In this document: piece after piece, positions 19,540-62,015 of the stretch | Position numbering within the stretch: the stretch's first letter is position 1 | Layout of the letters: each line of letters starts with the position of its first letter | From: Lytechinus pictus | Lineage: Eukaryota | Direction: 5' to 3' | Assembly: GCF_037042905.1 (NCBI RefSeq) | Contig: NC_087252.1 | Location: 3,722,001 to 3,786,000 of the forward strand | DNA length: 64,000 bases | Program-made: the position numbers and the translations under genes | Notes under the pieces: model-generated | Told to the model about the DNA's origin: nothing | The model's input: only the letters and a program-made list of their open reading frames with translations | The model's database searches: none

Positions 19540-20365
19540 TGTTCACTCTCAAACATATAAAGAGGATAAAAAAAATAAGACGAAGAATGGAGGAAAAATA
19601 CGGTGGGCGTGGGCAGGAAAGAGGAAGAAGAAAGAACGGCTGTGAAAAAAAATAGAAGATCGAATGGGGAGAAGAATGAATAATACAGAACAACAAAAGA
19701 AATAAGAGGAAAAAGGATGAGGAATAAGATGGTGGGGTGAGCAAGAGAGAGGAATAAGAAGGAAAAAAGGGGGAAGGAATGAGGTTAAAAAATATTGAGA
19801 GCAGATCGACGGGGGAGAAGAAAAAGATATGGAGGGGGAGAGGAATAAGATGGTGGGAATGGGCAGGGGAGAGGAAGAAGGAAAACATAAATATATAAAG
19901 AGGAACGAAAGAAAAAAAGAGGAATAAGGCGGTGGGTGAGGGAGGGAGAAAACAAAGAAGGAAAAAAGAAAGAAAACCGGCAAAAAGAGAGAAGATCGAA
20001 GGGTGAGAAGAACGAAAAACAGAATTATGTAAATAGAAACGAAAACAAGAAGAAAAGGGGAAAAATTAAAAAAAAAGTGGAGGGTGAAAAAAGGCAAGAC
20101 AGAAGAAGGAAAGGAGGGGGAAAAATCGGCAGAGAAAAAAAAAAGATCGAAAGTGAAGAAAGAAAAACAGATTAGGAGGAACGAAAGAATTAAAGAAGTG
20201 AAAGGGGATGAGATAGAATAGGGGAGGGGGTTAGAGAGAGGAGACCGAATGACCTGAATAAGAAGAGCGAACGAAAAGGGGGAGAGAGGAAGAAAGGAAG
20301 AAATAAAACACAAGAAAGACGAAAGAAGTAGGTAAGAGAATAAGAGAGAGGGAAAGAGAGAATAG
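19540..20365. repeat. Purine-rich (GA/GAA) low-complexity tract
   Basis: About 800 bp of almost pure A/G. It explains the F/S/L-rich minus-strand ORFs. Confidence 0.85.
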
Positions 20366-22469
20366 ATCTGGACACAGTCGAATGGAACAACATGACAATG
20401 ACTTTTATAAAATGTTTATTTCAATATGTGTATTTTAAATGACTAATATTTTCAATCAATGTCTTATACCATATCCCAAAAAAATGCACTAAACCTTCTG
20501 CATGGTCGTTTCGGTCATTATTCATTGGTCGACGTTAGCTGTCTCAGACTTTCTGTTTGTACAGTTATTTATTTCGCTTTCTCTATCGTTCATTCAAACA
20601 GTCATGATAAAAATTGAGGGCAACAATGTCTTGATTATAAATAATTGAAAATAATGAAGCCCACCAAGCTTTCTACATAAATTTTGTCTCTTTTGTTAAA
20701 GATACTGCAGATCAATTAACTCACATTCACGAACAAACAATACTTTTAAGGATTGTAAACCCTTTCTTTTGAAATGTTCTCTCTTGAAAACATCCCGATC
20801 ACTTGCAAATAATGGAGATAATCTTCAACATGTCCATGTTATGTTTAATGAAATTAATCCTCGCAAACAAACCGTGTTCTGAATACTTTGCGTCTCTGCA
20901 TGACTTTTATTTCGCGATTATAGCCAGGCTAATACTCTAAATCCGGTATCAATCTATCGCTAACACCCCCGCCTGGTACTATTATCACCAAAAAATAACC
21001 CTTTAGAAGTTGTATCCCGTTTGTTAACTATTGTCAAGAAGCCCCCCTTTTGAATTTCAGAATACGCATTGAAATCGATGCTTCTGATCTTTCTTTTGAA
21101 GCTGAATCATTGAACCGATCGATCGAGCGAGCGGCCACCGCCAGCTGTACACGAGTTTAAATGAATAGCCAATCAACAATGGCGTACGTTGCTAGGGGCG
21201 GAGCTTAGTATGAAGCGAAATTCGATCAAGTCGAACGTGCCAAGTATCATAAATTTTCGAATTGACCGAAAAAAACACTCGCAGAAAAACTGCTTTTTTA
21301 TCACATTCCCGTCATCAATTTCACTCATCTTTTTCACAGAGTAATTATGAAACATGGAAGAATCAGAAAATGAAAAAAAAAAAAATCTTCACAATTTTGA
21401 CTTTTTTATTTGTGTGTCGAATTCCAAGGAATTTTGATTTGCGACTTGTCTCTCATTTCGGTATGATCGATCACATATGTTTGTTTCTTTGTGGGAAAAT
21501 CAAGTTTTGTTTGAATTTTGGAGTTGCATTTGATCCCAACTCTAACCGCCAAGGGCCCAGATTCTTACTCAGAATTCTGTCACGATTGGAAAATATCAGC
21601 TAACTTTAAGGTGTGAAAGCAATCAACTTGTAATTGCCAAGGGAGAGTGCCAAAAAATAAGTATCTACCTTTCAAAATTCAGGTAACTTAAGCAGCTAGG
21701 GATCTCTCAATGGTTGGGAGAGATTTGCGGTGTGACAGGAAATTATAAATATTGAAAAATGTTGTGAGGCATAGAGTTCATGTTCATTTGCTATAGGAAT
21801 GTGGGTCTTGTAATAGCTCATGTTCGACAAGAAATTTATCTGGTTATGGCAGCTAGGCATAAAAATTGGCAAATAATTACCAGGTATTTTGAAGCTTGAG
21901 TAAGTTATATTCATTTTGTGATCAGAAAAGTTTTGAAAATAATATGGTTTGATATCAGGCACCCAATAGGTATTTGGCTGCACAAAAAGCTTATGAACCA
22001 ATTTAATACTTGAAAGATTGCAGATGATACAAAAAGAACATGCGAATTATCTACATCCATCCAGTCCTCTCATCAAATGGTCTAACTTCATTTAGTGTAA
22101 AATTGTCATTTCATCCTGTTATATTTCATGTACCATCCATTTGGTCTGATATTCATCTTATCCCATCACCAGTTGGTTCATAACTGATTCATCTACCAAC
22201 AGTTAGCCGAATGTTATAACCATTTTGTCTTCATCCAATCTGTCCGACACTTACCCGTCCAATCTTCAGTTTGTCCGATATCATTAAATGAGAAAAATAC
22301 AAGAAAGAAAAAAAACCAAAGAATTAAAGCACCATACATGTAGAGGTTGCGAGTCCAGTATTCCCCCTCCCAGCGAAAACAAAAATATTTTTAGGCAAAA
22401 AGTTTATCTTTTATTTTCAGTGGCTACATTGTACTTTACACAACCTACTGCCTAAATCTTCAACACTGT

Positions 22470-22761
22470 ATAATAATGATAATAATAATAGGCATTTATA
22501 TAGCGCTATCTATCTATACATATATTCTATTCCGAGGTGCGTCGTTATTATTATTACCCCGGCTTTAGCTCGAGCTGCCATTCAGCGCTCATGTATTCAA
22601 GGAATTAATCCTGCCCGGTACCTATTCTCCTCACCTGGGTTGAGTGCAGCACAATGTGGATAATTTCTTGCTGAAGGAAATTACGCCATGGCTGGGATTC
22701 GAACCCATGACCCTCCGTTTGAAAGTCAGAAGACTAATCCACTGGGCCACAACGCTCCACA
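22470..22761 (-). mobile_element. tRNA-derived SINE with (ATT)n tail
   Basis: Minus-strand head TGTGGAGCGTTGTGGCCCAGTGG...GGGTTCGAATCCC, with (AAT)n at about 22470-22490. A related + copy lies at about 46375-46560. Confidence 0.75.
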
Positions 22762-23662
22762 TGGGAATAAGCTATAGCATGTCAGTGAATGGGTATTTTC
22801 CAGGGCTCTTCTGAGCATTTCCAAGTCAGTGGCCGAATTGCCCCATGCCCCTATGTAATTTTTACCCTAATTTAAACACCCCCCCCCCCAACAAAAAAAT
22901 AATAATTAATTGAAACAAGAAAATAAATAAACTGCATTGTGAATCTTGGGAGCGAAAGAGCATTGCCTCCCATCTCTTTCAAATAAATAGAGTGAAAGAT
23001 TAGAGAAAGGCAATTAAAATAGGAAGAACACAAAGTAGAAGCCAGGAGACGATATTGTTTCTGGACGAAACAAATATCAAACAAAATAGTGATTGGCCCT
23101 GATGGCTATTGGACTGTAGGCCAGATGCAAATTAGGCCAAATTACTATTTGCTGAAATGGCTTTACATGTAGGGATAGTAGACCAACTGCATTTCTACCA
23201 AATAGAACATAGATGAGATGAGAGTAGACTAAATGATCATTTGATAGATCAATAGACAAGTTGGCTATTAGACCAAATGTATATAGATGTAATGATAGAC
23301 AAAGTGGCTATCGGACCAACTGGCAAAAAACACAGACCAAATGGCTATTGAACCAAGTGATAATAAATGTACATGTAATTGCTAGTAAACACGCTGGCTA
23401 TTCCATGAAATGGATTGGACAAGATGGTGATTGGACTATATATATGGACAGTGGACCAACTGATAGTAGATTTGATCATGTGATGAGTGGACGAGATGGT
23501 GATTGGACCAACTGATGGTAGATTCGATCATGTGATGAGTGGACGGGATGGCAGTAGACGAAATGGGCATAAACACACCCTGAGAATTAGAGATACATGT
23601 ATCTTGAAGCAATCATCCGTTTTAAATCAGCATTGGACATTTCACCCTGCTCTTCTACTCAG

Positions 23663-25131
23663 GTGGAAATTCAAGTATGCAGAGCACCTCTCAAGGGACT
23701 GGACACATTGAGGAAATGTCAGGTGATAAATCATGTGACAGGTCACATGGGAAAGCTCTTCCAAAAGACTTCCTATTACAAGGTGTGCAAGGAAACCATT
23801 CTGAGTTTCTGATGGGGCAAGTTGCGCAAGTGCATTTCACTATTCTCCCTTTACCAAACAAAGCAGAAAATCTTCAAGGACAGAGTGTGGCCGACAGAGC
23901 TACCCTGCCAGATCCCAATGATGAAAGATTAGATGGAGACCTTGCAGTGGGCTGTGGTGTGAAATGTGACAAAACATCAGGTGATGCATCATGTGACCGA
24001 TCATATGCTCAAGGACAAAAAGTTGCTGACCGTGCTACGATTTCGGATGGTCATGATGGAAGATTGAATGGAGACATCGCAGTGGGATGTAGCATGAAAT
24101 GTGACAGAGCGGGTGATGTCTCGCTTTGCAGATCACATTCTCAAGGACATTGTTCTGTTGACAGTGCTACTGTCTCAGATCATGAAGATGAAAGGTTGGA
24201 TGGAAACATTGCAGTGGGACATGATGAAAAACATGAAATATCAGGTGATGCATCGCAAGGCAGATCTTCTAAAGGACAGAGTATTGCTGACGGTGCTTCT
24301 GTGTCAAATCACGATGATGGAAAAGTGGATAGACGTATTGCAGTGGAGCATGAAGCGAAACCTATAAATGTAACAAACTCTTTTCAAAACAAGCAAAAAA
24401 AGTCTTCAGTATTATGTTCTCCAAGAAGCACCCAAACCAATCCTCGCAGCAAGTCGAGGGAAGATAGACCTTTCGTCTGTACAGTCTGTAATAGAGGATT
24501 TAGCCGTAAGGATAACCTGACCACCCACATGAAAATTCATCAAGCGAAGAGGCGTCGTGATCAGTGCCCGTTCTGCAAGAAAAAATTCCTTTGTAGCACT
24601 TATCTGAGGATGCACATCAAGGTGCACACAGGGGAAGAGCTTTACGTGTGTTCTTTTTGCAAAAAGACGTTTTTCAAAAGGCAAAGTCTTGATGAGCACG
24701 TTAGAACCCACACAGGAGAAAAACCATTTCAGTGCTCATACTGTAATATGAGGTTTGCCCGTGCTGATGCGTTCAAGAGGCACACTCGATCTCACAAGCG
24801 AGAAACATGCCAATTTTGTGACAAAACATTTTCCCAAGCTGACGATCTCAAGACGCACATGAAAAAGCACTCTGCAGAAAAGCCCTTTCAGTGTGGCGAT
24901 TGTGGCCAGAGTTTTGCTACGAAACTCCAGGTTGTCGATCATCAAAAAACCCACGCAGGAGAAGAACCTAACTTTTGTTCTATTTGTGACAAAAAGTTTA
25001 AGAGAAAACATGATTTTATTAGACACATGAGAGTCCATACGGGAGAAAAACCCTATCATTGTCCAGTGTGCTCCAAGAGCTTTTCGGCAAAACGCTCTCG
25101 CAATAGGCATATGAAAATGCATTCAGGTTGA
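23663..25131 (+). CDS. ZNF gene A, alternative terminal exon T1: 8 C2H2 fingers (predicted isoform 791 aa)
   Basis: CTGCTCTTCTACTCAG|GTGGAAATTC phase-1 acceptor, in frame with donor 17754 and ORF 23677-25131. Has 8 CxxC-x12-HxxxH motifs with TGEKP-type linkers. Confidence 0.9.
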
Positions 25132-26324
25132 GATCTGGTAGGTCTTTCACAAAGTGTTGTGTATAATAATTTGTGAACAAATTTTCGGCTTTTCTCCTAT
25201 GTGTTTAAGATTGCATGAGTCAGAAAAAATTGGAACCAGTGGGATTCAAACCCTTCATCTACTGCTTGCCGGGCAGCGACTCAGGTATTACTTAGAGTTG
25301 CACTTAATGTCCAGTTATGTGCCGAATAAAAGGAATCACTGCATTGGTCAAATCTAGCTATTAAAAGAGGACTCACGCTCGTACACTAAGTATTTATCAA
25401 TAAGATTGCAAGTAGTGCGCATCAGCATTAAACATGACTTAAAGTCAAATTAACTCTTTTTGAAACATCCCCCCCTCCTGGTTGCTCAATATAGGGAAAA
25501 TTTTCCCTGACAATAAAGTTGGTTCTCAAATAAGCAGAAAATTAGAGCAAAATATAGGTGAAGGCTTGATGAAATTCATGAAAAACCATCTAAAGACGTA
25601 TGTATATCATTGAGGGAGTTTTGGAAATTTTGATTTATGTTTTTGATTTATGAGTAATGACTTCATAAAAAATACACCATCAAACTATCAATATGTACAA
25701 TCAAATGTACTGAAGTGCATGTATACATTATGCAAATATTATGTGCTATTATTGTGCTAAAAGGTAATTGTAGAAAATGGCTTTAGCATTTATTGATCAA
25801 TATTTTTCAAAAAAAACTACAAGGCATTCTGTAATCCTACATGTACGTGTAGTTTGATTAAAACCCATTTACCATTTTTGGTAGTTTCTAGTGTAATAGG
25901 CTATACACGTTTCATCTAATATCCACTTTATAGTCTAACGCTACTTTGGTCATACATGAATATGGTTTAATAGATCAACTGTTAATGAATGAAATTTTCA
26001 TTTGGCAAAGTAAAAAGTAATAACTAGAGGAAGTAGTAATTAGGCCATTTGGACATGAGATGCAGATCTATGAAAATATTAAGTGTAGAGCAAATGGCAA
26101 TCGGGCCAACTCGATTGTCGACCGAATGGGCTATAACCTACATGTACCTGTACATGTATGTATGTAGAAATATAAAGATTATCTGAGTAGACCGACTCAG
26201 GAACTTGCCATCAATATTTTATTTTTTTTAATTGAAAGTAGCACATGTACATGTATATCAGACAATATTACAAAGAGCAAGTATTCACAATTAATTTTTG
26301 TATTTATTGTGCAATGTGCATGAT

Positions 26325-27506
26325 TTTTTGTCTCGCCTGCATAGCAGAGCGAGACTATAGGCGCCGCTTTTCCGACGGCGGCGGCGGCGGCGTCAACATC
26401 AAATCTTAACCTAAGGTTAAGTTTTTGAAATGACATCATAACTTAGAAAGTATATGGACCTAGTTCATGAAACTTGGACATAAGGTTAATCAAGTATTAC
26501 TGAACATCCTGCCTGAGTTTCAGGTCACATGACCAAGGTCAAAGGTCATTTAGGGTCAATGAACTTTGACCATGTTGGGAAAATTATTTTCAAAATCTTA
26601 ACCGAAGGTTAAGTTTTTGAAATGACATCATAACTTAGAAAGTATATGGACCTAGTTCATGTAACTTGGGCATAAGGTTAATCAAGTATTAGTGAACATC
26701 CTGCTCGAGTTTCAGGTCACGTGACCAAGGTCAAAGGTCATTTAGGGTCAATGAACTTTGGTCAAGTTGGGGGTATTTGTTGAATTACTATCATAACTTT
26801 GAAAATTTATGGATCTAGTTCATGAAACTTGGACATAAGGTTAATCAAGTATTAGCAAACATCATGTGCGAGTTTCAGGTCACATGACCATGGTCAATGG
26901 TCATTTAAGGTCAATGAACTTTGGCCGTGTTGGGGGTATTTGTTAAATTACCATCCTAACTCTGAAAGTTTACGGATTTAGTTTTAAAACTTGGACATAA
27001 GAGTAATCAAGTATCACTGAACATCCTGTACGAGTTTCAGGTCACATGACCATGGTCAAAGGTCATTAAAGGTCAATGAACTTTGGCCGTGTTGGGGGTA
27101 TTTGTTAAATTACCATCCTAACTGAAAGTTTATGGATCTAGTTCATAAAACTTGGGATATAAGAGTAATCAAGTATCACTGAACATCCCCTGTGAGTTTC
27201 AGGTCACAAAACCAAGGTCAAAGGTCAGTTAAGGTCAATAAACTTAGGCCATGTTCGGGTAATTGTTGAATTGCCATCATAACTTTGAAAGTTTATAAAT
27301 AGAGTGAATGAAATGTGGACATGGATGTAGTTGACAAGTCTTAAGTCACCGTTCAAATGTCATTTATGGTCAATGAACGTGGTATTATGTCATTATATGA
27401 ATGGTGTTTTTGTGAATGATTATTTTATAGTAGTTTTCAAAGTTAGCACTGCTGCTATATTAAATCGCGTAATGCAGGCGAGACTGCCAGAGGCGTTCCA
27501 CTTGTT
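26325..27506 (+). mobile_element. Helentron-associated / DINE-1-like non-autonomous element with internal tandem repeats
   Basis: Subterminal IR GTCTCGCCTGCA...TGCAGGCGAGAC, a short 5' hairpin, and 5-6 internal repeats of about 160-190 bp (GGTCACATGACC core), in a T-rich site. Partial copies at about 12390-12686 and 38185-39027. Confidence 0.75.
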
Positions 27507-28074
27507 TAATAGAAAATCTGGAGCAACAGACTTTGTTTTTATCTGTTTAAAGTGTCCAGACATACTGTAGGACCCCCATCCCAATCATGATTCAGTATTT
27601 TAGAATTTGTGGGTCAAACTCTTGAATAAATCATGATACAATAGTGGTGATTGTGTATGTTCAAGGAGAAATCAACCCATGTACATTTGAGGAAAATTGA
27701 AATAGTTCATCTCACACAATACAGTACTGTACATTTAATTCATAATTGTCCTGCTGTGTGTGATGCAAAAATACATGTACATACCTGGACCCCATTGCAT
27801 AAAATTTACTATACTAGTAACTTTGCCATCCAGTGGTAACTACCATGGCAACGATGATCAACAGCCAATCAAAATCCAGGATTTCATGGAGGTTACCATT
27901 ACATGGCAAAGTTACCATAATGGTAACTTTCATGCAACTTTTATGCAGCAGGGCCCCGTTGCATAAAAGTTACCATGATTTTGAGGTGGACTTGACCTTT
28001 AAAAAAGGACTGTAGAACCAGATGAAATTGCTGATTTTTCAAACTTAATGTACTGCCTTCCTATTTTCATTCAG

Positions 28075-29291
28075 GTGTGAATTCAACTATCAAGACGACC
28101 TATGGTACCAAGGAAACCTATCAGGATATATCAGGTGGCACGTCACATGACATATCACATGGGGGACCTGTTCCAGAGGAATGGATCTTACATGGTGCAC
28201 AAGAAAACTATTCCGATGTATCTGCCAGGGCCAGTTGCTCAAGTGAGTATGACTCTGAACTGTTACCAAGGCAAGCTGACTATCCACAAGGACATAGTGC
28301 GACTGACAGTGATACCATGATAGATCATAATGATGGAGGATTAGATGAAGACATTGTGATGGGATGTGATGTAAAAGGTGACATGTCAGGTGATGCATCA
28401 TGTGACTGGTCACATGCTCAAGGACTGAGTGTTACTGACAGTGCTACTGCATCAGATCATGAAGAAGGCAATGCAACGGGACCTAGTGAGGAATGTCGAA
28501 CAACCTTATCAGACATCAAACAGTCTCCTTTTTGTCCAGTTTGCAATGAACAATTAACCAGCAGCGATGACTGGACTGATCATTTCAGATTACACGGCGA
28601 ACTCTGGCCTCATGAATGCACCTTCTGCAACGAAAGGTGTGCCACTCTCAAAGATCTTAACAGACACTTGCGAGTCCATCCTGGAGCTAGACCACACAAG
28701 TGCTCCATTTGTGGCAGACGCTTCTTGGAAGAATATCATCTCAGAGAACACATGGCAGTTCATGCGGCACAGAAGCGATATCAGTGCAAGTTTTGCGAGA
28801 GGACGTACGCCCGGAGGGGCAGCCTGTATGCACACATAAAGACACATGAGAGAACTTATCAATGCAAGCATTGTGATATGAGGTTTACTCATCGGATCAT
28901 GCTGTCGGAGCATACAAGATCGCATCACTCCTTGATTAAAAAAAAAACGTTTGAGTGCTCTATTTGTCACAGGAAATTTGCGAGATCTGCTGACCTCATC
29001 GGTCATCGAATAGTCCACACTGGAGAGAAACCTTTTCAATGTTCTCAGTGTGGCAAAACTTTTTCCTACAAAAGAGTGCTTGTCACCCACGAGAAGATTC
29101 ACACGGGAATAAAGGATCATCTGTGCCCTATCTGTGGGAGGGTGTTTGGTAGAGACTACATTTTACAACAACACATGTTAATACATACAGGGGATTTACC
29201 CTTTTCGTGTTCCGTATGTTCTAAGAACTTTCGGCAAAAGAGTACAATGGTAAAGCATATGAAAAGCCAACACCCAACTCTGGCCAATTAG
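28075..29291 (+). CDS. ZNF gene A, alternative terminal exon T2: 9 C2H2 fingers (predicted isoform 707 aa)
   Basis: CTATTTTCATTCAG|GTGTGAATTC phase-1 acceptor, in frame with donor 17754 and ORF 28077-29291. The ORF-track start is GTG, not ATG. Confidence 0.9.
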
Positions 29292-35285: not shown

Positions 35286-35551
35286 ATGGCCGAAACAAGA
35301 AAACTAGGTCGTCCTTCATTTTCCCCAACGAGAAAAGAAGCATTTAGAAAGGATTCCAACATGTCCAAGAAGATGTTTCGAGATAAAAAGCGGAAGGAGC
35401 GAGATGAGGCTTTGTCTACCGTCGTGCCGCCGACCGCACCCCGCTACAAACATATTCGCATTTCAACCGCTACGTTCTGGCGATGGCGATCACTTGCTCA
35501 AGAGCTTGGCCTGGAAGGAGACGAACAGATGGCTTCATTTCTCTTAAACAC
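35286..35551 (+). CDS. ZNF gene B, constant coding exon 1 (AT-hook-like KLGRP, basic helix, RHH-like module)
   Basis: ATCATGG start at 35286, downstream of a CpG-rich patch (about 35065-35160). Donor AAACAC|GTCAGT (266 nt, phase 2). Peptide ...KHIRISTATFWRWRSLAQELGLEGDEQMASFLLNT. Confidence 0.85.
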
Positions 35552-39386: not shown

Positions 39387-39434
39387 GTACTATGAGCGGG
39401 CAGTGGAAGCTGCTTCTAAAGAACAGAGACAAGA
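39387..39434 (+). CDS. ZNF gene B, constant micro-exon 2 (48 nt, phase 2-2)
   Basis: TTTTAATGTAG|GTACTATGAG...ACAAGA|GTAAGT. Extends the last helix: (T)YYERAVEAASKEQRQ(D). Confidence 0.8.
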
Positions 39435-40509: not shown

Positions 40510-40787
40510 TATTCCCCAGAATTCCGAAGAATCGAGGCAAAATGTAGAGACTTCCATGTTCCAAGGTGATGAGCAAGGCACAGAGACAGATGCCATGGGA
40601 TCTACAACACTGCCAATGCAAGCTACGCAAGATGGCTGGAGAGGTGATGATGGTGACAAGAGTCACAAGACTAATGATGGTGGTGAGATGTTAGAAGGGG
40701 AGTTCACCTGCCTTGTCAAAACGGAACCTCACGATAGTGGTGAAGAATCCAATGAACATGGAACATTACCATCCGTCAGCCAACAAG
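40510..40787 (+). CDS. ZNF gene B, constant exon 3 (acidic), phase-1 donor
   Basis: TCTTATGCAG|TATTCCC...CAACAAG|GTTTGT, in the frame of ORF 40442-40819. Ends VKTEPHDSGEESNEHGTLPSVSQQG. Confidence 0.85.
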
Positions 40788-44432: not shown

Positions 44433-44552
44433 GAGACAGCTTGACAGGAGATGATGATGATAGGAAGGAGATTGAAGAAGTGGAGTTTAAATGTCTTATC
44501 AAAGAAGAACCGGATGATGGTGAACGCAACCAACCATCCTGCAGCAAGCAAG
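44433..44552 (+). CDS. ZNF gene B, exon 4 (120 nt, symmetric phase 1-1), last constant exon
   Basis: TTTCTTCAG|GAGACAGC...AAGCAAG|GTTTGT. Peptide GDSLTGDDDDRKEIEEVEFKCLIKEEPDDGERNQPSCSKQG. Confidence 0.85.
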
Positions 44553-48774: not shown

Positions 48775-49328
48775 GTGGGAATTCGAGTGAGCAGAGGAGC
48801 AATGAGGAAATGGCAGGTGATGCATCATGTGACAGATCACATGCTCATGGACTGAGTTCTGCTAACAGTGCTTACTTGTCAGATCATGGAGAATTGGCTG
48901 AAGATACCACAACCCAAAATGTGTATTATGAGACACGTGAAGAAGCATCTTCAGGGAAGGTTTACAGCATATTTTCGCCTAGAAGCTATCAACATGATCC
49001 TCCCCAGGACCCTGGCATTGATAAACCTTACGTCTGCCCTGTTTGCAGTAAAGGATTTACCCGCAGCGATTGCTTTCGAAGGCATAAGAAAACGCATCGT
49101 AGTGAAAGGCCTCATGAGTGCCATTTATGCCCAAAGAGGTTTCAGCGTGCCGAAGATCTCCGAAGACACCTACGAACCCACTCTGGAGAAAAACCATATG
49201 CATGCTCCGTTTGCAATCGACGCTTTGGTAGGAACTCAAGTCTCAAACAACATATGGCACGTTATGAGGTTAGCTGCGACACTGGTCAACGTGTGATTAA
49301 ATGTATAATGGAAAAAGTGCTTGTATAA
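48775..49328 (+). CDS. ZNF gene B variable exon a1: 2 canonical C2H2 fingers plus 1 atypical finger (isoform 421 aa)
   Basis: CTGCTCTCCTACTCAG|GTGGGAATTC phase-1 acceptor, in the frame of ORF 48726-49328. Confidence 0.85.
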
Positions 49329-49573: not shown

Positions 49574-50153
49574 TTGAGTATGCAGAGCATCTGTGAAGAC
49601 ATCAGGAAAAATGAGGGAATGTCAGGTGATACATCATGTGACAGATCACATGTTCATGGACAGAGTGCTGGTACCAGTGCTGTTTCAGATCAATTGGCTG
49701 AAGATATCACGACCCAATCTGTGTACGGTGAGACACATGAAGAATCATTTTCAAGGATGTTTTACAGCATATTTTTACCTAGAAGCAATCAACATAATCC
49801 TCCCCAGGACCCTGGCATTGAAAAACCTCATGTCTGCCCTGTTTGCAGGAAAGGATTTACCCACATCAATTGCTTTCGAAGGCATAAGAAAATCCATCGC
49901 AATGAAAGGCCTCATGTGTCATTTATGACCGAAAAAATTTCAACGTGCCGAAGATCTCCGAAGGCACATGTGGAAACACAAGGAGAAAAACCATATATGC
50001 TCAGTATGCGATAAACGCTAATAGTTGGAACTCAAGTTTCAAAAACCATTTGGCAGTTCATAAATGAGAAAAACTATATATATGCTCAGTATGCGATAAA
50101 CGCTAATAGTTGGAACTCAAGTTTCAAAAACCATTTGGCAGTTCATAAATGAG
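49574..50153 (+). pseudogene. Gene B variable exon b1, defective
   Basis: Homologous to b2/b3, but the CTGCTCTTTTACTCAG|GTGG acceptor is deleted. Frameshift after finger 1, in-frame stops, and an about 85 bp tandem duplication at 49983-50153. Confidence 0.8.
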
Positions 50154-50468: not shown

Positions 50469-51457
50469 GTGGGAATTCAAGCAAACAGAGCTCCTGTCAA
50501 GAAATAGGGAACACTCAGATAATGTCAGGTGATACATCACATGACAGATCACATGGGAAGCATCTCCCAGGTGACTACCCTTTACCAGCTGTCCTAGGAA
50601 CCCCTTCCCATTCATCTCCCAGAGGCCATCGCTCAAGTGAGTATGGCTCCTATCTCTTGCCAAACCAAGTGGATTATCCTCAAAGACAGAATGCAACTGA
50701 CAGTGCTACCATGTCAGATCGGAAGAGGTTGGATGGAGGCATTGTGGTGGAGAATGAGAATTATGACACATATTCTTTACAAAACACAAAAAGGTCATTC
50801 CCCGTCGAGACAAGAAGCATTCAAAGTACTTCTTGCATCAATCCCGAAGGAGAAAACACTTTTCTCTGTTCCATTTGCAGTAAGGAATTTAACCGCAAGC
50901 ATAATTTGAGGCGGCATATGAAATTCCATGAAGGAAAAAGACCTCACACGTGCTCTTTCTGCAACAAAACTTTTGTACAAAAAGGCGATCTCAGGAGACA
51001 TGAGCGATCCCATACTGGGGAAAGACCGTATTCATGTTGTTTTTGTGACAAACGCTTTATAGATACATCCCACCTAAAAGCTCATTTGTTAATTCACACT
51101 GGAGAAAAGCCGTATGAATGCAGCCTTTGTGACAAAACCTTTTCTCATAAAGCTAGCCTAACGGTTCACCTGAGATTGCACAGTGGTGAGAAGCCATTCA
51201 AGTGTTCACTCTGCGACAACAGCTTTTCTTTGAAAAGTCAGCTCATGAATCATCAGATCAAACACACGGGCATAAAGCCATACCAGTGCTCGGTTTGTGA
51301 GAAAAGGGTCGGGACAAAAAGCTCTTTAAGTCAACATATGAAGATTCATTCAGGAGAAAAACCATTTCAGTGTTCTGTATGTTCAAAGTGCTTTCGGCGG
51401 AAGAGTACTCTTAAAAAACATATGAAAATCCATGGAATCTCTTGTGAGGACTTGTGA
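50469..51457 (+). CDS. ZNF gene B variable exon c1: 7 C2H2 fingers (isoform 566 aa)
   Basis: CTGCTCTTTTACTCAG|GTGGGAATTC acceptor, in the frame of ORF 50219-51457. AATAAA at about 51594. Confidence 0.9.
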
Positions 51458-52516
51458 TTTCCTATGAAACACTGTCAAATCATCAATGTTCGGCAGACGT
51501 TACACATTTCTAACCGGGGAGCTTTTCATATAATCTTTTGTCAACGATTTTTCGTGACTTATTCGATCTCAACCAATGATCACTTAAAACAGTAATAAAC
51601 AGTGCAAATCTTTGATTATTTCTTACATGAAATTATCCCATTGTTTCATCTATTGTTTTGAGTGGTATACGTACTGTGTGCAATGTTTACTTTGCATTTC
51701 AAGGATGTGGAATTAAAGTGGAGAAGAAGTGAATTATGATTCAAATCACTGTTTATGATATCAAACATACAGAGATGCCAACTGTCCTATACTGGATTTA
51801 CATTTTTTCTCTGAAAATATTTATCTTACTTTTTTTCATTTTTAAATTTAAGAAAAAGACAATTAGCAAATTTGCTCTGGTCTGAAATCTGAAACAAGTA
51901 AAATCTGCTGAGTTTGATGAGGGATGAAATGTCGAGAGATTTTTGGAATATCAGATTTTTACATTTTTATTGATATTTAGATTAAGCACATTCCATCAAT
52001 AAAATACTTTCAGAGGAATTTTAACTTGAATTTTATTTTGGAAAATCTCCTTTTTGTGGTCCCAAACATAATGTATTTAAGTTGATATAATTTTGTTGAT
52101 AAAATATTAAACTCAAAAGTCAAGTGTCGTGAAACTTTACAACAATATTCTCCTTAAAGATATCTGATAACCAGCAAAATCTGAAAGCTTTTTAAAACAT
52201 TTGTATAGGTTTAAAATCTCTGAATGGCTAATATGTAAGGTGCACTACATGTATATCTTGGACTGTAAGGCCCAAGATAAACAAATGTGTACTGAGGCCG
52301 GCCTTGGAGATACCTTGACATACAGTGTATACATCAGCTCAGCTTACTATTTTTGATTGCTAGACTGGACTGTGTCCACCTACGTACAAGGCGATGTGAG
52401 TCCCTCAATTACTCTAAGGTGGCTTAAGCATTGAACTACAAATAGCTAGCAAAAGTTATTACTAACGAACAAGAGAAAATGTTGACGTGAAAAGACAGTT
52501 GATTCGTGTCACTTAA

Positions 52517-53259
52517 CCCTAAAAAGACTGGATTTATTGCAAAAAATGACAGTGGGGGCTGAATCAGCCCTCCCCCTCAACATTTTTCGTGATAAATCCA
52601 CCACTTAAATTTTTATTACTGCATCGCTCATTGACTTTTTACTTTTTTAAAGTCTTGTGCAACTTCTGAGATAAAAAATGCGACCCCCAGGTAAGCGGTT
52701 CCGAGATTACGCAACATTTTGTAAGTGCATGCAGACCCAAAATTACTCAAAAATGTGAATTCGTGTAAAAATCCAATGCAAATAGTGTTTTTAGCCATAA
52801 TTCATAAATGTACATGTATCATTTATTTTTCCTTTTACTAATTAAAATCAAATGATCTCTTGTTCATGGTCAAAATAAAATGCCCAACAATTTCCATTGA
52901 AAAAAAGCAATAAACAAAAAGTGGAAAACAAGGAACATCAGAAATCTAGAAAACAATGTGATGTTGATTTTTTAAACTACATTTGATCATATTCCTATAA
53001 AGAGTCTTTGATCCAAAATTAGCATATGATAGGCATTATTTACTGAATTAGAGCAAACTTTTTTATTTAATGCATAATCAATTAGCCATGAGATTTTTTC
53101 GCAGAATTTGACCATTGAGTTTTGTAGAAAATGCTATGGATAAGGCACGTGCCAATTTTTGTCGCGATCATGCTATTGACGGCCGAGATCTTAAGGGGGA
53201 CTGATTCAGGCCCCCCCCCCCCCAGTCTTAGGCGTCGAAATAGCCCAGTCTATTTATGG
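52517..53259. mobile_element. piggyBac-like MITE (TTAA TSD); duplicated copy at about 58466-59208
   Basis: TTAA|CCCTAAAAAGACTGG...CCAGTCTATTTATGG|TTAA. The second copy ends CCAGTCTTTTTAGGG|TTAA. Confidence 0.8.
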
Positions 53260-53685
53260 TTAAATAGGCGATGTGGATAAAGAATCTCAAAGCAGTTTCA
53301 GTCTTCTAGCATGTGTGGAACACCACCCAAATTGCTTGGTTGAGGCCGGCTCAAAAGCTGGTGTTGGATGTGGCTTCAAACCCAATGCATGTGTATCTTG
53401 GGTCTTAGCCTGAAGAATTTGGCAAAAGACTACCTCTCTAGCATCACATAAAAGAACCCACAAAGTCATTTCCTGACACTTTATAAGTCAATAGGGCGTT
53501 ACATTTACATGTAGCTTTTCTAAATTAGGTACAATTTTCAGTCAGACTGAATTCTTTTCAACAATTTTACATGACTGCCTGGGAAGCAATAAATCATTAG
53601 TATGGTCTCTGCTTACTTTCTCTGGATGGTTATAGGATAGATATTAGAAGCATTCTGTTCCATTTTTAAACTCATCAATGATAAT

Positions 53686-54031
53686 AATAATAATATTCCG
53701 CATTTATAAAGTGTTAATACATCGGAACGACGTCTCTAAGCGCTTTACAGACATATTATTACCCCGGTCATCGGATCCTTGCATGCCCGCATACAATGTA
53801 TGCACCCTCTCCACTCCCTGGGGAGCATTCCAACAAGAGTTCCAAGACTCAATTGCTAGGCATACTACATAGGCTTTCGCATCCTACCAGGTACCCATTT
53901 AACACCTGGGTGGAGAGTGGCAAAGTGTGGATTAATGCTTGCCAAAGGACGCTAGGCCATGGTGGGATTCGAACACACGACCATCTGATTACAAGGCGAG
54001 AGTCAGAACCACTTCACCACGACGCTTCCAC
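53686..54031 (-). mobile_element. Full-length tRNA-derived SINE inserted 19 bp upstream of exon a2
   Basis: Minus-strand A/B boxes and (ATT)n tail. TSD ATGATAAT at 53678-53685 and 54032-54039. Empty site in the duplicate at about 59645. Confidence 0.85.
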
Positions 54032-54050
54032 ATGATAATTATATGCTCAG

Positions 54051-54535
54051 ATGGGAATTCAAATGTGCAGAGCACCTGTGAAGGTATCAGGAAATATTAG
54101 GAAATGTCAGGTGATACATCATGTGACAGATCACATGCTCATGGACAGAGTTCTGCTACAAGTGCTAACATGTCAGATCAATTGGCTGGAGACATCACGA
54201 CTCAATGAGGGTATGGTGAGATGGTTGAAGAAGCATTTTCAAGGAAGTTATTTTCAACTAGAAGTAATCAACATAATCCTCCCCCGGACCCTGGCATTGA
54301 TAAACCTTTTCTCTGCCCTGTTTGCAGTAAAGGATTTACCCACAGCGATTGCTTTCAGAGTCATAAAAACCCATCGAAAGGAAAGGACTCATGTGTCATT
54401 TATGACGAACCTGCGAAGATGTTTGCAATTACATGCGGACCCACACTGGAGAAAAACCATATGTATGCTCCATCTGTGATCAACGCTTTGGTAGGAACTA
54501 AAGTCTCAAAAAAATATATAGCACGTCAAAGCTGA
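54051..54535 (+). pseudogene. Gene B variable exon a2, defective
   Basis: ATGCTCAG|ATGGGAATTC acceptor. The phase-1 frame hits TAG after ...CEGIRKY (about 54098). Fingers are frameshifted. Confidence 0.8.
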
Positions 54536-54831
54536 GGGTAGCAACATCACTTGTCAACGTGTGATAAAATGTCTAGTAGAAAAAGTGCTTGTATTACAAG
54601 ATGAAAGTTATGTCAATACAACAGTTTTGTTGTGAAAAAATTTCCAAGCTCATCATCTTACTGTACAGGACAGAATCCACACAAGACAAAATTTCTTTGA
54701 ATATCTGTTTGTGCTATCAAAAGCATTTCCATCAAGACTTCTGGTGATCTTTTGAACCTCATTATCAATGAAAATTCCTTTGTGTCAAAGTGCCGCACAT
54801 AATAGATATTTGATTCTGCTCTTTTACTCAG

Positions 54832-55343
54832 GTGGAAATTCAAGTGTACTAAGCATCTGTGAAGAGATCAGGAAAAATGAGGAAATGTCAGGTGATACAT
54901 CATGTGACCGATCACATGCTCATGGACTGAGTTCTGCTAACAGTGCTTCCAGGTCATATCAAGGAGAATTGACTGAGGACATAATGACCCAGTACATGTA
55001 TGTGTGTGGTGAGACACATGAAGAAGCATTTTCAAGGAAGTTATTTTCACCTAGAAGTAATCAACATAATCCTCCCCAGGACCCTGGCATTGATAAAACT
55101 TACACCTGCCCTGTTTGCAGTAAAGGATTTACCCGCAATGATTGCTTTCAGAGGCATAAGAAAATCCATCGAAAGGAAAGGCCTCATGTGTGCCGTTTAT
55201 GCCCGAAGAGATTTCTGCGTGCCGAAGATCTTCGAAGACATATGCGGATACACACTGGAGAAAAACCATATGTATGCTCTGTATGCGATAAATGCTTTAG
55301 TTGGACTTCTAGTTTCAAACGCCATTTGACAGTTCATAGATGA
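54832..55343 (+). CDS. ZNF gene B variable exon b2: 3 C2H2 fingers (isoform 407 aa)
   Basis: CTGCTCTTTTACTCAG|GTGGAAATTC acceptor, in the frame of ORF 54768-55343. Confidence 0.88.
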
Positions 55344-55660
55344 GGTTGGCAACATAACTGGTTACGGTGTGGTTAGATGTTTAGTGGAAAAATATGTCAA
55401 TATTCTGTCAATGCACTCAAGATACCATACTGGAGAAAAACAGACTTGCCACAATGAACATGTCCAAGTTCATCATCTATTAACCTGTACAAAAGAATCA
55501 TCATGGGAGAAAAGGTCTTGGATGTTATTTTTTTGCTTTATCAACAGTATTTCTGCCAAGACTTCTGGTACTTATGTGAACATCCTTATCCATGAAAAGT
55601 ACTTTGTGTAAAAGTGCAACACATAATAGATATTTTATTCTGCTCTTTTTAAATACTCAG

Positions 55661-56637
55661 GTGGGAATGTAGGCAAACAGAGCTCCTGTCAACAAAAAGG
55701 GAATACTCAGATAATATCAGGTGATTTATCACATGGGAGGCATCTCCCAGGTGACTACCCTTTACAAGGAACCCCTTCTTATTCATCTCCCAGAGGCAAT
55801 TGCTCAAGTGAGTATGGCTCCTATCTCTTACCAGACCAAGCAGATTATCCTCAAGGACAGTGCTCTGCTGACAGTGCTACCACGTCAAATCATGATGGTG
55901 AAAGATTGGTTCTAGACATTGTTGTGGGGAATGAGAAATATCACACAAATTCTTTACAAAACACAAAGAAGTTATCCCCTGTCACTGCAACGAGAAGCAT
56001 TCAAGGCAATCCTGGCATCGACCCCAAAGAAGAAAGCACCTTTCTCTGTTCCGTTTGCAATGAAGGATGTAAACGCAAGGATGATTTGAAGCGGCATATG
56101 ATCTTCCACAAAGGGAAAAAGCTTCATGAGTGTTCTTTCTGCAACAAAACTTTTGTATCAAAAGCCAATCTCATTAGACATGAGCGATCCCATACTGGGG
56201 AAAGACCGTATTCATGCTTTATTTGCAACAAACGGTTTCTAGATACGTCTCATCTAAAAGCTCATCTGTCAATTCACACGGGAGAAAAACCGTATGAATG
56301 CAGCCTTTGTAACAAAGCCTTTTCTCTTAAAGCTCCTCTAATGGCTCACCTGAGAATGCACAGTGGTGAGAAGCCATTCAAGTGTTCACTCTGCAAAAAC
56401 AGCTTTTCTTCCAAAAGTAATCTCAAGGCTCATCAGATCAAGCACACGGGCGAAAAGCCGTACCAATGCTCGGTTTGTGAGAAAAGGCTGTGGAAAAAAG
56501 ACTCTTTAAATCAACATATGAAGATTCATACAGGAGAAAAACCATTTCAGTGTTCTATTTGTTCAAAGAACTTTCGGCAGAAGAGTAATCTTAAAAATCA
56601 TATGAAAATCCATGAAATATCTTCTGACGATTTGTGA
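55661..56637 (+). CDS. ZNF gene B variable exon c2: 7 C2H2 fingers (isoform 562 aa)
   Basis: CTGCTCTTTTTAAATACTCAG|GTGGGAATG acceptor. The phase-1 frame is open (GGNVGKQSSC...) into ORF 55906-56637, whose start is TTG. Confidence 0.88.
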
Positions 56638-56756
56638 TTTCCTACGATAAAAGTATGGCAGATATTAAAAATTATTATCCGACGAGCATTTCATAATCTT
56701 TTGTCAGCGATTTTCCCTGACTTATTCGGTCTCAACCAATGTAATATTTCACTTAA

Positions 56757-57755
56757 GGTGACAGGTGCCCTAAAAAAATTTTTTTTTTATGATTTCAATT
56801 TTTTTGTCTCCTTTGCTAGTTTCATGTGTGTACTTCATCATGCAACTTGTTTTATCTCAATATTCTACCTCTTGTTTTAATAAGAGGGGGGTTAAAACAT
56901 ATTTTTTTCATAAAATTCTCAAACCGGAAGTAGTATTTTACACACCGGAAGTGATTAAATCTGTCCCCAAAACCTTTGATACTGCCTTTAAAAAAAATCA
57001 GAAATTCCCCAGATTTTTTTTGGCTGAAGCCCCAGATATTCCATGTAGCAAAGTGGACTACCACCCTCTGTTGGCCAAATAGGGAGAGCTACTGTATTGC
57101 ACAATATGGCAGCGACTTCAAGTTACATACACTATGTGACAGACATGGCACGTTACAAATTTCCGTTATTATTAGTATTATAGCCCTTTCTTTATCGTGA
57201 TATTATACAAAATTGAGGGTTTTTTAAATGAAAAATGTAATAACTTGAGTTCTAATCATTGGATTTGCATGAAATTTTGTAGAATTGTGTATCTTGAAGA
57301 GTACAACAAAATAATGATAGTTTTTGTGCATGGTACCCCCACAGGTGGAGTTGTGTATAAAAGTCCATTCTGAATTTCTCATTATCTGACTGCTTGTTTA
57401 ATCCATAATTTTTACAATTCTACTCTGAATATTTCTTAAAGCCATCATAAATTCATCACAAAGAAGTCAGAGAATTAAATTAATCCATCAAAACTTAAAT
57501 TACACTCTATGTTGTGAAGTTATAACCATAGAAAGTTCATATAGAGAAAAATCTTGATTTTTAAAGTCATGACTTTGAATGACCATATTTTGCTTATGCC
57601 TAAAGCTTATATGCCACAGTGCAAATTTTTGTGTAGATCAGCTCATAAGCTTTCCAAAAATATATAGTTTGTTGGGGTACAGGTACTTAGTAAGAATCCT
57701 ATGCTTGATTATATACCCGTAGTCGTTTCCGCACGGTAATAGGGCACCTGTCACC
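56757..57755. mobile_element. Kolobok-like non-autonomous element (TTAA TSD), present only in triplet copy 2
   Basis: TTAA|GGTGACAGGTGCCCTA...TAGGGCACCTGTCACC|TTAA. Empty sites CACTTAAAACAG (about 51581) and CACTTAGAAGCAG (about 62095). Confidence 0.88.
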
Positions 57756-59642
57756 TTAACACAGTGCAAATCATTGATTATTTGTGACATGAAATTATCC
57801 CCTTGTTTCATCTATTGTTTTGAGTGGTATAGGTACCGTGTGCAATACGTACTTTGCATTTAATCAAGGTTGTGGAATTAAAATGGAGATGAAGTGCGGT
57901 ATTCAAATCACTGTATAAGATGTCAAATACAGTATACAAAGATGCCAACTGTCCTATTTTACTGGATTACATTTTTTCTCACAAAATCAATATGTTTTCT
58001 TTTTCAAATATTCTAAGAACAAAGAAAATGCGCAAATTTGTTCTTGTCTGAACTCTGAATCAAGTAAAAATCTGCTGAGTTTGATAGGGGACGAAATGTT
58101 TAAGAGATTTCTGGAATGTTAGATTTTTTAATATCTACTTCATTGAATTAAACATAATTCCATCAATGAAATACTTTCAGAGGGATTTTAACTTGCATTT
58201 TATTTTCGAAAATCTTTTCTTTTTGTGGTCCCAAACATAGTGTAAGTCAATATATTTTCGTTGGTAAAATATTTAACTCTAAGTCAAGTGTCGGGAATCT
58301 TTACAACAATATTCTTCTTTAAGATATTTATCTTAATAATGATAACCAGCAAAATCCAAATGCTTTTAAAACATTTTTTATAGCTTGAAAATCTCTGAAT
58401 GGCTAATATGTATTAAAGTTGCACTACATGTATATCTTGGACTTTAATGCCCAACATACACATCCATTAAAAAGACTAGATTTATTGCAAAAAATGACAG
58501 TTGGGGGGCTGAATCAGCCCTCCCTCCCCCAACATTTTTTGTGATAAATCAACCACTTAAAATTTTTTTACTGCATCGCTCATTGAGTTTTTACATTTTT
58601 AAGTCTTTTGCAACTTTGGAGATAAAATTGCGACCCCGGGTACGCAGTTCCAAAATTCTGCAACATTTCGAAAGTGCATGCAGACCCCAAATTGCTCAAA
58701 AACGTGAATTTGTGTACAAATCCAATGCAAAAAGTGTTTTTAGCCATAATTCATAAATGTGCATGTATCATTATTTTTTCCTTTTACTAATTAAAATCAA
58801 ATAATATCAACTTGTTCATGGTCAAAATAAAATCCCCAACGATTTCCATTGAAAAAAAAACAATAAAAAAGAAAAAGTTGAAAACAAGGAAATAAATCAA
58901 AAACTTAGAAAACAATGAATTAAGGTGATGTTGATTTTTTTTAAGTACATTTGATCAGATTCCTATAAAGAGTCTGTGAACCGAAAATTAGAATTTGGGA
59001 GGCATTATTTACTGAATTAGAGCAAACCTTTTGATTTTTTGCATAAATAAGCTTAATTAATTAGCCATGACATTTTTCGCAGAATTTGATCATTGAGTTT
59101 TGTAGAAAATGCTATGGATAAGGCACATGCCAATTTTCGTCGCGATCACGCTTTCGACAGTCGAGTCCTCTTGGGGGTCGAAATAAATGTAGCCCAGTCT
59201 TTTTAGGGTTAAATAGGCGACGTGAATTAAGAATCTCAAAGCATTTTCAGTCTAATTCTAGGGTGTGTGTAACACCACCCAAATTGCCGGGTTCAGGCTG
59301 GCTCAAAAGCTGGTGTAAGAGGCGGCTTCAATCCCAATGCATGTGTATCTCGAGTCTTTGTCTGGAGAATTTGGCAAAAGATTACCTATCTGGCATCACA
59401 TTTAATAATGAACCCACAAAGACATTTCCATACACTTTAAAGTCAATTTGGCATTTCATATATATGTAGATATTCTAAATTAGGTACATTTTTCAGTCAT
59501 AATTCTTTTGAAACAATTTTCCACAACTGCCTGGGAAGCAATAAACAATTACACTGTAGGGAATAAAGTATGGTCTCTGCTTAATTTCTCTGGATGGTTA
59601 TAGGATGGATATTAGAAGCATTCTGTTCCTTTTTTTACTCAG

Positions 59643-60117
59643 CAATGATAATTTGAGTGTTCATGGACTGAGTTCTGCTACAAGTGCTAACATGTCAGAT
59701 CAATTGGCTGAAGACATCACGACTCAATGTGTGTATGGTGGTGAGATGCTTGAAGAAACATTTTCAAGGAAGTTATTATCACGTAGAAGTAATCAACATA
59801 ATCCTCCCCAGGACCTTGGCATTAATACACATTACCTCTGCCCTGTTTGCAGTAAAGGATTTACCCGTAGCGATTGCTTTCAGAGTCATAAAAAACCCAT
59901 CGAAAGGAAAGGCCTGATGTGTCATTTATGCCCAACGTGCGAAGATGTTTGCAATTACATGCGGACCCACACTGGAGAAAAACCATATGTATGCTCCGTT
60001 TGCAATCAATGCTTTGGTAGAAACTCAAGTCTCAAACAACATATGGCACGTTATGAGGTTAGCTGCATCACTGGTCAACGTGTGATAAAATGTATAATGG
60101 AAAAAGTGCTTGTATAA
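59643..60117 (+). pseudogene. Gene B variable exon a3, defective
   Basis: The original acceptor and first about 85 nt are deleted. The nearest TTTTTACTCAG| (59642) gives A-M-I-I-stop in phase 1. Fingers 1-2 are degenerate. Confidence 0.75.
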
Positions 60118-60197
60118 CGAGATGAAAGTTTGTTGTGTCAATACAACGTTGAAAAGTGCCGCACATAATGGATATTTCATTCTGCTCTTTTACTCAG

Positions 60198-60703
60198 ATG
60201 GAAATTCAAGTGTGCTGAGCATCTGTGAAGATATCAGGAAAAATGAGGAAATGTCGGGTGATACATCATGTGACAGATCACATGCTCATGGACTGAGTTC
60301 TGCTAACAGTGCTTCCAGGTCAGATCAAGGAGAATTGACTGAGGATGTAATGACTCAGTATGTGTGTGGTGAGACACATGAAGAAGCCTTTTCAAGGAAG
60401 TTATTTTCACCTAGAAGTAATCAACATAATCCTCCCCAGGACCCTGGCATTGATAAAACTTACACCTGCCCTGTTTGCAGGAAAGGATTTACCCGCTATG
60501 ATAGTTTTCAGAGGCATAAGAAAATCCATCAAAAGGAAAGGCCTCATGTGTGTCATTTATGCCCCAAGAGATTTGTGCGTGCTGAAGATCTCCGAAGACA
60601 TATGCGGATACACACTGGAGAAAAACCATATGTATGCTCTGTATGCGATAAACAATTTATTTGGAACTCTAGTTTCAAATACCATTTGACAGTTCATAGA
60701 TGA
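60198..60703 (+). CDS. ZNF gene B variable exon b3: 3 C2H2 fingers (isoform 405 aa)
   Basis: CTGCTCTTTTACTCAG|ATGGAAATTC acceptor, in the frame of ORF 60110-60703. Confidence 0.88.
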
Positions 60704-61026
60704 GGTTAGCAACATCACTGGTTACAGCGTGGTTAGATGTTTAGTGGAAAAATAGTGTTATGTCAATATACTGTCAATGCACTCAAGATACCATACTGGA
60801 GAAAAACAGATTTGCCACAAAAAACACGTCCAAGTTCATCATCTATTAACCTGTACAGGAGAATCATCATGGGAGAAAAGGTCTTTGATATTATCTGTTT
60901 GCTTTATCAACAGTATTTCTGACAAGACTTCTGGTACTCCTGTGAACATCTCTATCCATGAAAATTGCTTTGTGTAAAAGTGCAACACATAATAGATATT
61001 TTATTCTGCTCTTTTTAAATACTCAG

Positions 61027-62015
61027 GTGGGAATGTAGGCAAACAGAGCTCCTGTCAACAAAAAGGGAATACTCAGATAATATCAGGTGATTCATCACAT
61101 GACAGATCACATGGGAAGCATCTCCCAGGTGACTACCCTTTACAAGGAACCCCTTCCAATTCATCTCCCAGAGGCAATTGCTCAAGTGAGTATGGCTCCT
61201 ATCTCTTACCAAACCAAGCAGATTATCCTCAAGGACAGTGCTCTGCTGACAGTGCTACCACGTCAAATCATGATGGTGAAAGATTGGTTCTAGACATTGT
61301 TGTGGGGAATGAGAAATATCACACAAATTCTTTACAAAACACAAAGAAGTCATCCCCTGTCACTGCAATGAGAAGCATTCAAGGCAATCCTGGCATCGAC
61401 CTCAAAGAAGAAAGCACCTTTCTCTGTTCCGTTTGCAATGAAGGATGTAAACGCAAGGATGATTTGAAGCGGCATATGATCTTCCACAAAGGGAAAAAGC
61501 CTCACGAGTGTTCTTTCTGCAACAAAACTTTTGTACAAAAAGCTGATCTCATTAGACATGAGCGATCTCATACTGGGGAAAGACCGTATTCATGCCTTAT
61601 TTGCAACAAACGCTTCACAGATACGTCTCATCTAAAAGCTCATCTATCAATTCACACAGGAGAAAAGCCGTATGAATGTAGCCTTTGTAACAAAGCCTTT
61701 TCTAATAAAGCTAACCTAACGGTTCACCTGAGATTGCACAGTGGTGAGAAGCCATTCAAGTGTTCACTCTGCAACAACAGCTTTTCTTCCAAAAGTCTGC
61801 TCGTGAATCACCAGATCAAACACACAGGCATAAAGCCGTACCAGTGCTCAATTTGTGAGAAAAGGCTTGGGAAAAAATATTCTTTAAATCAACATATGAA
61901 GATTCATTCAGGAGAAAAACCATTTCAATGTTCTGTTTGTTCAAAGAACTTTCGGGTGAAGAGTACTCTTAAAAAACATATGAAGATCCATGAAATTTCT
62001 ATTGAGGACTTGTGA
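61027..62015 (+). CDS. ZNF gene B variable exon c3: 7 C2H2 fingers (isoform 566 aa)
   Basis: CTGCTCTTTTTAAATACTCAG|GTGGGAATG acceptor. The frame is open into ORF 61284-62015. Confidence 0.88.

Follow-up and report, generated by a model that had tools for sequence, protein, structure and literature searches.

Alternative seven-finger last exons in a Lytechinus pictus zinc-finger gene, with an excess of contact-residue change on one copy

Organization of the locus

The gene considered here is a zinc-finger gene (LOC129266428) of the sea urchin Lytechinus pictus, which lies in a window of 64,000 nucleotides (assembly GCF_037042905.1, contig NC_087252.1, positions 3,722,001 to 3,786,000 of the forward strand) whose own numbering is used throughout. 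It consists of four constant 5' exons followed by cassettes of three types, a, b and c, which sit in three tandem units of ~5.4 kb each, with all exons on one strand and in order (Table 1). The three seven-finger cassettes c1, c2 and c3 are alternative last exons of this one gene, the joint to c1 being less clean than the others, and an excess of contact-residue change over the neutral rate is confined to the c2 lineage.

A six-frame scan places the seven-finger arrays at 50867, 56047 and 61425 and the three-finger arrays of the b type at 55107 and 60467; these are tandem C2H2 arrays with TGEKP-type linkers, and seven zf-C2H2 stretches were matched in c3. In each of the intact cassettes (a1, c1, b2, c2, b3 and c3) a phase-1 acceptor leads into an open, finger-bearing frame that ends in a stop, while a2, a3 and b1 are broken. 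Units 2 and 3 are 92% identical over 1956 bases. The pieces ahead of the internal donors of c1, b2, c2, b3 and c3 measure 168, 177, 147, 171 and 159 bases, and simple arithmetic finds every one of them divisible by three.

Table 1. Exons, cassettes and associated features of the locus, in window coordinates.
Feature	Position	Strand	Remarks
Constant exon 1	35286..35551	+	start codon, basic stretch, strand-helix-helix motif; L. pictus models 99-100%, L. variegatus 92%
Constant exon 2	39387..39434	+	agrees with RefSeq models
Constant exon 3, acidic	40510..40787	+	RefSeq models; 3' end on X1 contig, loose end before 44431
Constant exon 4	44433..44552	+	phase-1 end; donor used towards c1, c2, c3
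Candidate last exon a1	48775..49328	+	two fingers intact and the third degenerate; joined to the constant exons in model P0004
Degenerate cassette b1	49577..50150	+	frameshift after finger 1; 5' piece in models P0005, P0016
Last exon c1, 7 fingers	50469..51457	+	internal donor after 50636; model P0006 = constant exons + whole c1
Broken cassette a2	54051..54560	+	frameshift and stops; immediately preceded by a SINE-like copy
Candidate last exon b2, 3 fingers	54832..55343	+	internal donor after 55008; models P0012, P0020
Homogenised tract, units 2/3 (acceptor, linker, finger 1)	55602..56121 (c2 coordinates)		run test, 0/3000 shuffles reach score
Last exon c2, 7 fingers	55661..56637	+	putative contact-residue burst; internal donor motif after 55807; exon 4 joint
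Inserted element, 1007 bp	56753..57759		terminal inverted repeats, 20 nt and perfect, beginning TTAA; behind c2 stop
Broken cassette a3	59643..60117	+	5' truncated, out of phase with own acceptor
Candidate last exon b3, 3 fingers	60198..60703	+	internal donor after 60368; 5' piece in models P0005, P0016
Last exon c3, 7 fingers	61027..62015	+	internal donor after 61185; exon 4 joint, X5 contig

Splicing and existing gene models

The RNA evidence consists of two stranded runs of one study together with the contigs X1 and X5, the X1 contig possibly not being independent of the window. Exon 4 is joined to c2 by a GT..AG joint in 8 and 6 reads of the two runs, and to c3 by another in 17 and 22 reads; contigs of X1 and X5 also carry the c2 and c3 joints. 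Towards c1 the joint is 44555>50533 (11 and 5 reads), with the letters between unresolved. Sense depth over the arrays is 4-14.5x, as against 0-0.5x over intron 4. The c2 and c3 exons are separable only by reads that reach a 12-base indel, and the longest junction sides measure 53-74 bases. For a1 the sense depth is ~2-3, and no joint to this cassette was found among the 15 of 53 joints listed. Two back-joints, 61673>55250 and 61673>60610 (side 21), were put down to similarity of the linkers.

Older RefSeq models of the locus end in a1, b2 or c1, and newer ones take the first 50-60 codons of cassettes before passing to a 9-finger exon beyond the window. All eight L. variegatus models (the XP_041470992-XP_041471000 series) contain 5' modules only, with the same 9-finger-exon ending. 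In RefSeq, c2 belongs to a separate gene model (P0020); none of the RefSeq models retrieved has exon 4 joined to a complete c2 or c3, whereas the RNA reads show both joints. At loci of this kind, as is seen here, the zinc-finger repertoire is understated by gene counts and by current models.

Divergence at contact residues

Zinc-finger specificity is set by helix positions -1, 2, 3 and 6. Helices are written here from -1 to +6, and these four positions are taken as the contact positions. The helices of fingers 1 to 7 read RKHNLRR, QKGDLRR, DTSHLKA, HKASLTV, LKSQLMN, TKSSLSQ and RKSTLKK in c1; RKDDLKR, SKANLIR, DTSHLKA, LKAPLMA, SKSNLKA, KKDSLNQ and QKSNLKN in c2; and RKDDLKR, QKADLIR, DTSHLKA, NKANLTV, SKSLLVN, KKYSLNQ and VKSTLKK in c3. 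Every helix difference quoted in the initial annotation of this DNA is correct, as is its statement that the finger 3 helix DTSHLKA is invariant across the three copies.

The same annotation held that substitutions among these exons concentrate at contact positions, which proves true of two of the three pairs. Changed codons number 11 of 28 at contact positions against 9 of 84 at non-core variable positions between c2 and c3 (p=0.0014), and 16/28 against 24/84 between c1 and c2 (p=0.007); for c1 and c3 the corresponding counts are 10/28 and 21/84 (p=0.20). A permutation test drawing on every set of 4 among the 16 non-core positions yields p=0.007, 0.032 and 0.26 for c2/c3, c1/c2 and c1/c3, respectively, and p=0.024 when the three pairs are taken together in a permutation of the same type. 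The framework is conserved, with core residues changed at 0/49 between c2 and c3, beside 5 synonymous changes, and at 2/49 in each comparison involving c1. All Cys and His residues of c2 are intact and its frame is open.

The b exons, which had been said to differ likewise, do carry the letters quoted (RNDCFQR, RAEDLRR and WTSSFKR in b2; RYDSFQR, RAEDLRR and WNSSFKY in b3), but two of their four helix changes fall at +1, and they show no contact enrichment (2/12 contact codons against 7/36 others; nonsynonymous divergence, pN, of 0.11 against synonymous divergence, pS, of 0.10). Between a1 and the b cassettes the contact codons are more conserved than the rest (2-3/12 against 17-18/36), and the downstream array compared between two species gives 6/36 against 13/108 (p=0.33).

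Allelic differences are also present: the older c1 model P0006 differs at finger 5 position -1 (L/S, a contact site) and at finger 7 position -2, and the older b2 model differs at finger 3 position +1. None of 10 read variants in these exons, from the 40 of 376 variant rows listed, falls at a contact site. Finger 1 of c2 and c3 has Cys in place of the conserved Phe (regions 56065-56070 and 61443-61448), and finger 6 of c1, c2 and c3 has Val or Leu at that position; these fingers may fold or bind atypically.

Related arrays elsewhere show further rearrangement. In the L. variegatus proteins P0007-P0011 the downstream 9-finger cassette is repeated as several in-frame 4-finger partial copies, up to 21 fingers in all, with a finger 3 helix that is unlike between the partial and the full copies. 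The S. purpuratus protein P0059 has three copies of the ~45-residue linker module ahead of a 9-finger array, so that the module is older than Lytechinus.

Tests of selection on the c exons

Under a fixed-sites codon model, the ratio of nonsynonymous to synonymous rates (omega) is 1.8-2.0 at contact sites, 0.6-0.7 at other variable sites and 0.1-0.2 in the core. The contact value exceeds the other in 8/8 model settings (likelihood-ratio test p 3e-5 to 0.004), and the expectation of faster change at contact sites, on which the annotation had staked its reading, is thus borne out. That the pooled contact omega exceeds 1 is weakly indicated (p 0.02-0.05). Separated by branch, contact omega is 3.7-5.4 for c2 (p 0.001-0.003, and <0.01 after correction for three branches), as against 0.9-1.1 for c1 and 0.8-1.5 for c3.

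Parsimony counts over fingers 2-7 agree. On c2, contact nonsynonymous changes stand at 12/53 against 6/126 synonymous (p=0.0007), an excess that is kept after removal of any single finger (p<=0.012), while the counts are 5/53 against 9/125 on c1 and 3/53 against 11/126 on c3. The c2 value also exceeds the pooled synonymous rate of 26/377 (p=0.0008) and the highest synonymous rate (p=0.013). The noncoding 3' flanks of the c units diverge by 14-15% between c1 and c2 and by 18-20% in the other pairs; measured against this flank, contact change between c1 and c2 is in excess (p=0.00016). No excess of adjacent double changes was found in these flanks, which argues that the doubles are unlike the background mutation process. 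At the six contact sites where c1 and c3 agree and c2 differs, the downstream array P0002, taken as outgroup, matches c1/c3 exactly at 2 and conservatively at 4, and c2 at 0.

Gene conversion and an inserted element

The N-terminal linkers of c2 and c3 had been described as nearly identical, and we count 8 differences in 377 aligned bases, or 8 in 461 when finger 1 is included, whereas ~15% of synonymous sites differ across fingers 2-7. Between c1 and c2/c3 the linkers diverge in a neutral-like manner (pN 0.15-0.16, pS 0.13-0.16), and the identity of the c2 and c3 linkers is therefore not one of constraint; it has the marks of a recent gene-conversion tract (Table 1). Lying within this tract, the linker was ruled out as a neutral baseline. 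Conversion between c1 and c3 was likewise ruled out as the source of the sites at which c2 appears unique (tract p=0.28; unique synonymous changes are most numerous in c3), and finger-to-finger conversion within the window is unsupported for the contact sites.

Nothing corresponding to the 1007-bp element is present in unit 1 or unit 3. RNA reads from both of its strands are present, and its TTAA ends presumably point to the piggyBac or Kolobok type.

Proposed history and its alternatives

The explanation that we favor, and that we hold with moderate confidence, is of one transcription-factor gene with alternative finger cassettes, one burst of positive selection on c2 and later conversion between c2 and c3. 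The four shared 5' exons would be joined to one of several tandem 3' cassettes, as the reads show for c2 and c3 and less cleanly for c1. A cassette that is read through would supply a linker, a zinc-finger array and a stop, whereas one spliced at its internal, frame-preserving donor would contribute a short linker module ahead of the next cassette. After the c cassette was tripled, its finger framework would have remained under purifying selection; positive selection would have acted in a single episode on the base-contacting residues of c2 following exon duplication, giving the c2 isoform a new DNA target, and the 5' halves of c2 and c3 would later have been made alike by gene conversion. The nature of that target can be guessed at. 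Asn at +3 reads adenine in the recognition code, finger 2 of c2 has passed from a QxxD to an SxxN type, and three fingers gain Asn at +3, which suggests that the predicted c2 site is more A-rich.

Several points weigh against this explanation. As c2 and c3 are alike over their first ~50 bases, only the longest junction reads tell them apart, and the 15 of 53 joints listed include none from an internal donor, so that the internal-donor route rests on the RefSeq models and the donor motif. The test comprises three sequences and ~12 changes, the c2 branch was picked post hoc, and fixation of the c2 residues is viewed through 40 of 376 variant rows. Under a model that allows double hits, the pooled contact omega falls to 1.4-1.6 and is non-significant (p 0.17-0.37), and contact change between c2 and c3 against the noncoding flank reaches p=0.06. 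Omega on the c2 branch is raised at the core and linker (0.42-0.45) and at other sites (~0.8) as well, which leaves room for some relaxation beside selection. Last, finger 4 of c2 carries Pro at +3, which may silence that finger.

The last three of these observations bear on an account in which a redundant c2 simply drifts, its omega above 1 being small-sample noise or the product of multinucleotide mutation. The loss of pooled significance under the double-hit model, the raised non-contact omega, the Pro at +3 together with non-polar residues in finger 4, the insertion behind the c2 stop and the death of the nearby cassettes a2, a3 and b1 all fit such relaxation; drift, however, cannot outrun the neutral rate, as the c2 contact count of 12/53 does against 26/377, the flanks are without an excess of doubles, and c2 is a spliced and expressed exon with its Cys and His residues intact and its frame open. 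We consider relaxed constraint unlikely for the c2 pattern. We give still less credence to import of the c2 helices by conversion from another finger or from a c-like paralogue elsewhere in the genome, a decidedly improbable source despite the demonstrable activity of gene conversion at the locus, the 2-3 base differences at several contact codons, and an I>E change, needing two base changes, that the c1 allele P0006 shares with c2. In phase, none of the contact changes specific to c2 can be matched to another finger of the window over more than 8 nt, a donor should have brought synonymous changes with it (c2 has 6/126), and no closer c-like protein was present among 120 of 565 matches listed.

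The initial annotation had attributed the pattern to ongoing diversifying selection on all the variable exons, as in the arms race between KRAB zinc-finger genes and transposons. The part that stands is c2, with its contact enrichment and omega above 1; beyond it, branch omega is 0.8-1.5 on c1 and c3, b2/b3 are unenriched, contact sites are the more conserved between a1 and b, the downstream array is unenriched between species, and a scan of four pieces, from the constant region and the cassettes, matched no KRAB. A general race of this sort could draw on the allelic contact difference at finger 5 of c1 (P0006), on the birth and death of cassettes within the locus, and on the enrichment of predicted sea-urchin zinc-finger protein (ZNF) motifs in transposable-element (TE) consensus sequences described in Wells et al. 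2023 (PMC10547256), in which it is also held that bulk TE-biased motif prediction for sea-urchin ZNFs needs direct validation. On balance we regard it as rather unlikely for this gene.

Relation to known systems

Positive selection has been described in lineage-specific poly-zinc-finger expansions (Emerson & Thomas 2009, PMC2604467; FiNZ-ZNFs in Wells et al. 2023, PMC10547256). With these expansions the present locus shares recent tandem duplicates, a kept framework, fast contact residues and conversion among paralogues; it is unlike them in that a single gene holds the duplicates as alternative exons, the signal is in one copy and no KRAB was matched. The tandem C2H2 array of KRAB zinc-finger genes is present here and selection at contact residues is found on c2 only, but no match to KRAB was obtained up to E=1 in a Pfam scan of exon 1, exon 3, c3 and b2 (exons 2 and 4 not scanned singly), and PF01352 is absent from the precomputed domains of 11 full-length models. 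The gene is not a KRAB gene.

The Drosophila gene mod(mdg4) reportedly joins common N-terminal exons to alternative zinc-finger last exons, like lola. In Drosophila lola (PMC1947980), common N-terminal exons are likewise joined to one of many zinc-finger last exons; the present gene departs from it in that exons 1 and 3 contain no BTB match, the host is an echinoderm, and the cassettes are young (80-92% identical), each with an internal donor that lets its array be skipped. In its working the layout is lola-like, but with no BTB the gene is not a lola-type member. In a third L. pictus gene of the family, one front end is combined with different arrays in two RefSeq isoforms (P0139, P0143). Selection of this pattern is textbook knowledge, and what is less usual is a lola-like layout without BTB in an echinoderm; no account of the locus or of such an echinoderm layout was found in the literature searched, most subscription papers being outside its scope.

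Adaptation of contact residues is familiar from whole-gene duplicates of vertebrates, whereas here it is seen inside one gene, on one alternative last exon. With 11 contact residues different between them and the front end, linker and finger 1 in common, c2 and c3 form a clean natural pair, in a sea urchin tractable in the laboratory, on which to study the divergence of specificity and to ask whether zinc-finger expansions of invertebrates track transposons.

The constant N-terminal module

At the effector end, neither KRAB nor BTB nor any other curated domain was matched in the pieces scanned. A short, unannotated motif of exon 1 (window 35430-35549), also carried by the proteins P0139, P0143 and P0144, is common to at least three L. 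pictus zinc-finger genes, and its relatives are Lytechinus proteins only (11/42 candidates, and 2/26 in another search); a further search returned 3 true matches of 5, the remaining two being of low complexity. The best Atlas score, 0.80, is a lead at most. The motif is modelled as an extended segment followed by two helices (pLDDT 85). Its best Foldseek rows are TCP domains and NikR, at a non-significant E of 1.5-2.3, and in VIA the Z score is at most 3.0, with ribbon-helix-helix (RHH) entries at 2.5-2.6 amid unrelated folds; none of the fold searches yielded a significant match. We regard the motif as a candidate lineage-specific effector or dimerisation domain.

It is tempting to go further and suppose that sea urchins evolved, independently of the BTB genes of insects, a family of zinc-finger genes in which a lineage-restricted, possibly dimerising N-terminal module is coupled to a chain of duplicating cassettes that are spliced out or read through. 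New DNA specificities could then be tried as isoforms without duplication of the gene, and c2 would be one such trial, adapted to a young A-rich repeat or transposon that it silences. This is conjecture, and we think it rather unlikely to hold.

Other features of the window

A second gene of like plan lies at 15129-29291 (+), with an exon at 15129-15338 that carries the N-terminal motif, and an acidic exon at 17165-17755 with a phase-1 end. Its two candidate last exons, with 8 and 9 fingers, are at 23663 and 28075 respectively, and an extra start may be provided by a promoter-like stretch at ~21100-21700. Copies resembling a short interspersed nuclear element (SINE) are present at 53700-54038 and 12157-12383. 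The copy at 53.7-54.0 kb lies directly ahead of the broken a2 acceptor; its antisense read depth, to which many genomic copies probably contribute, exceeds 1400x. On the minus strand, positions 3-1487 hold a long leucine-rich-repeat frame in a single exon, which begins like a signal peptide and which we take to resemble a sea-urchin Toll-like receptor, and at 3378-4513 (+) there are broken reverse-transcriptase-like frames, labelled from their translation as a non-LTR retroelement.

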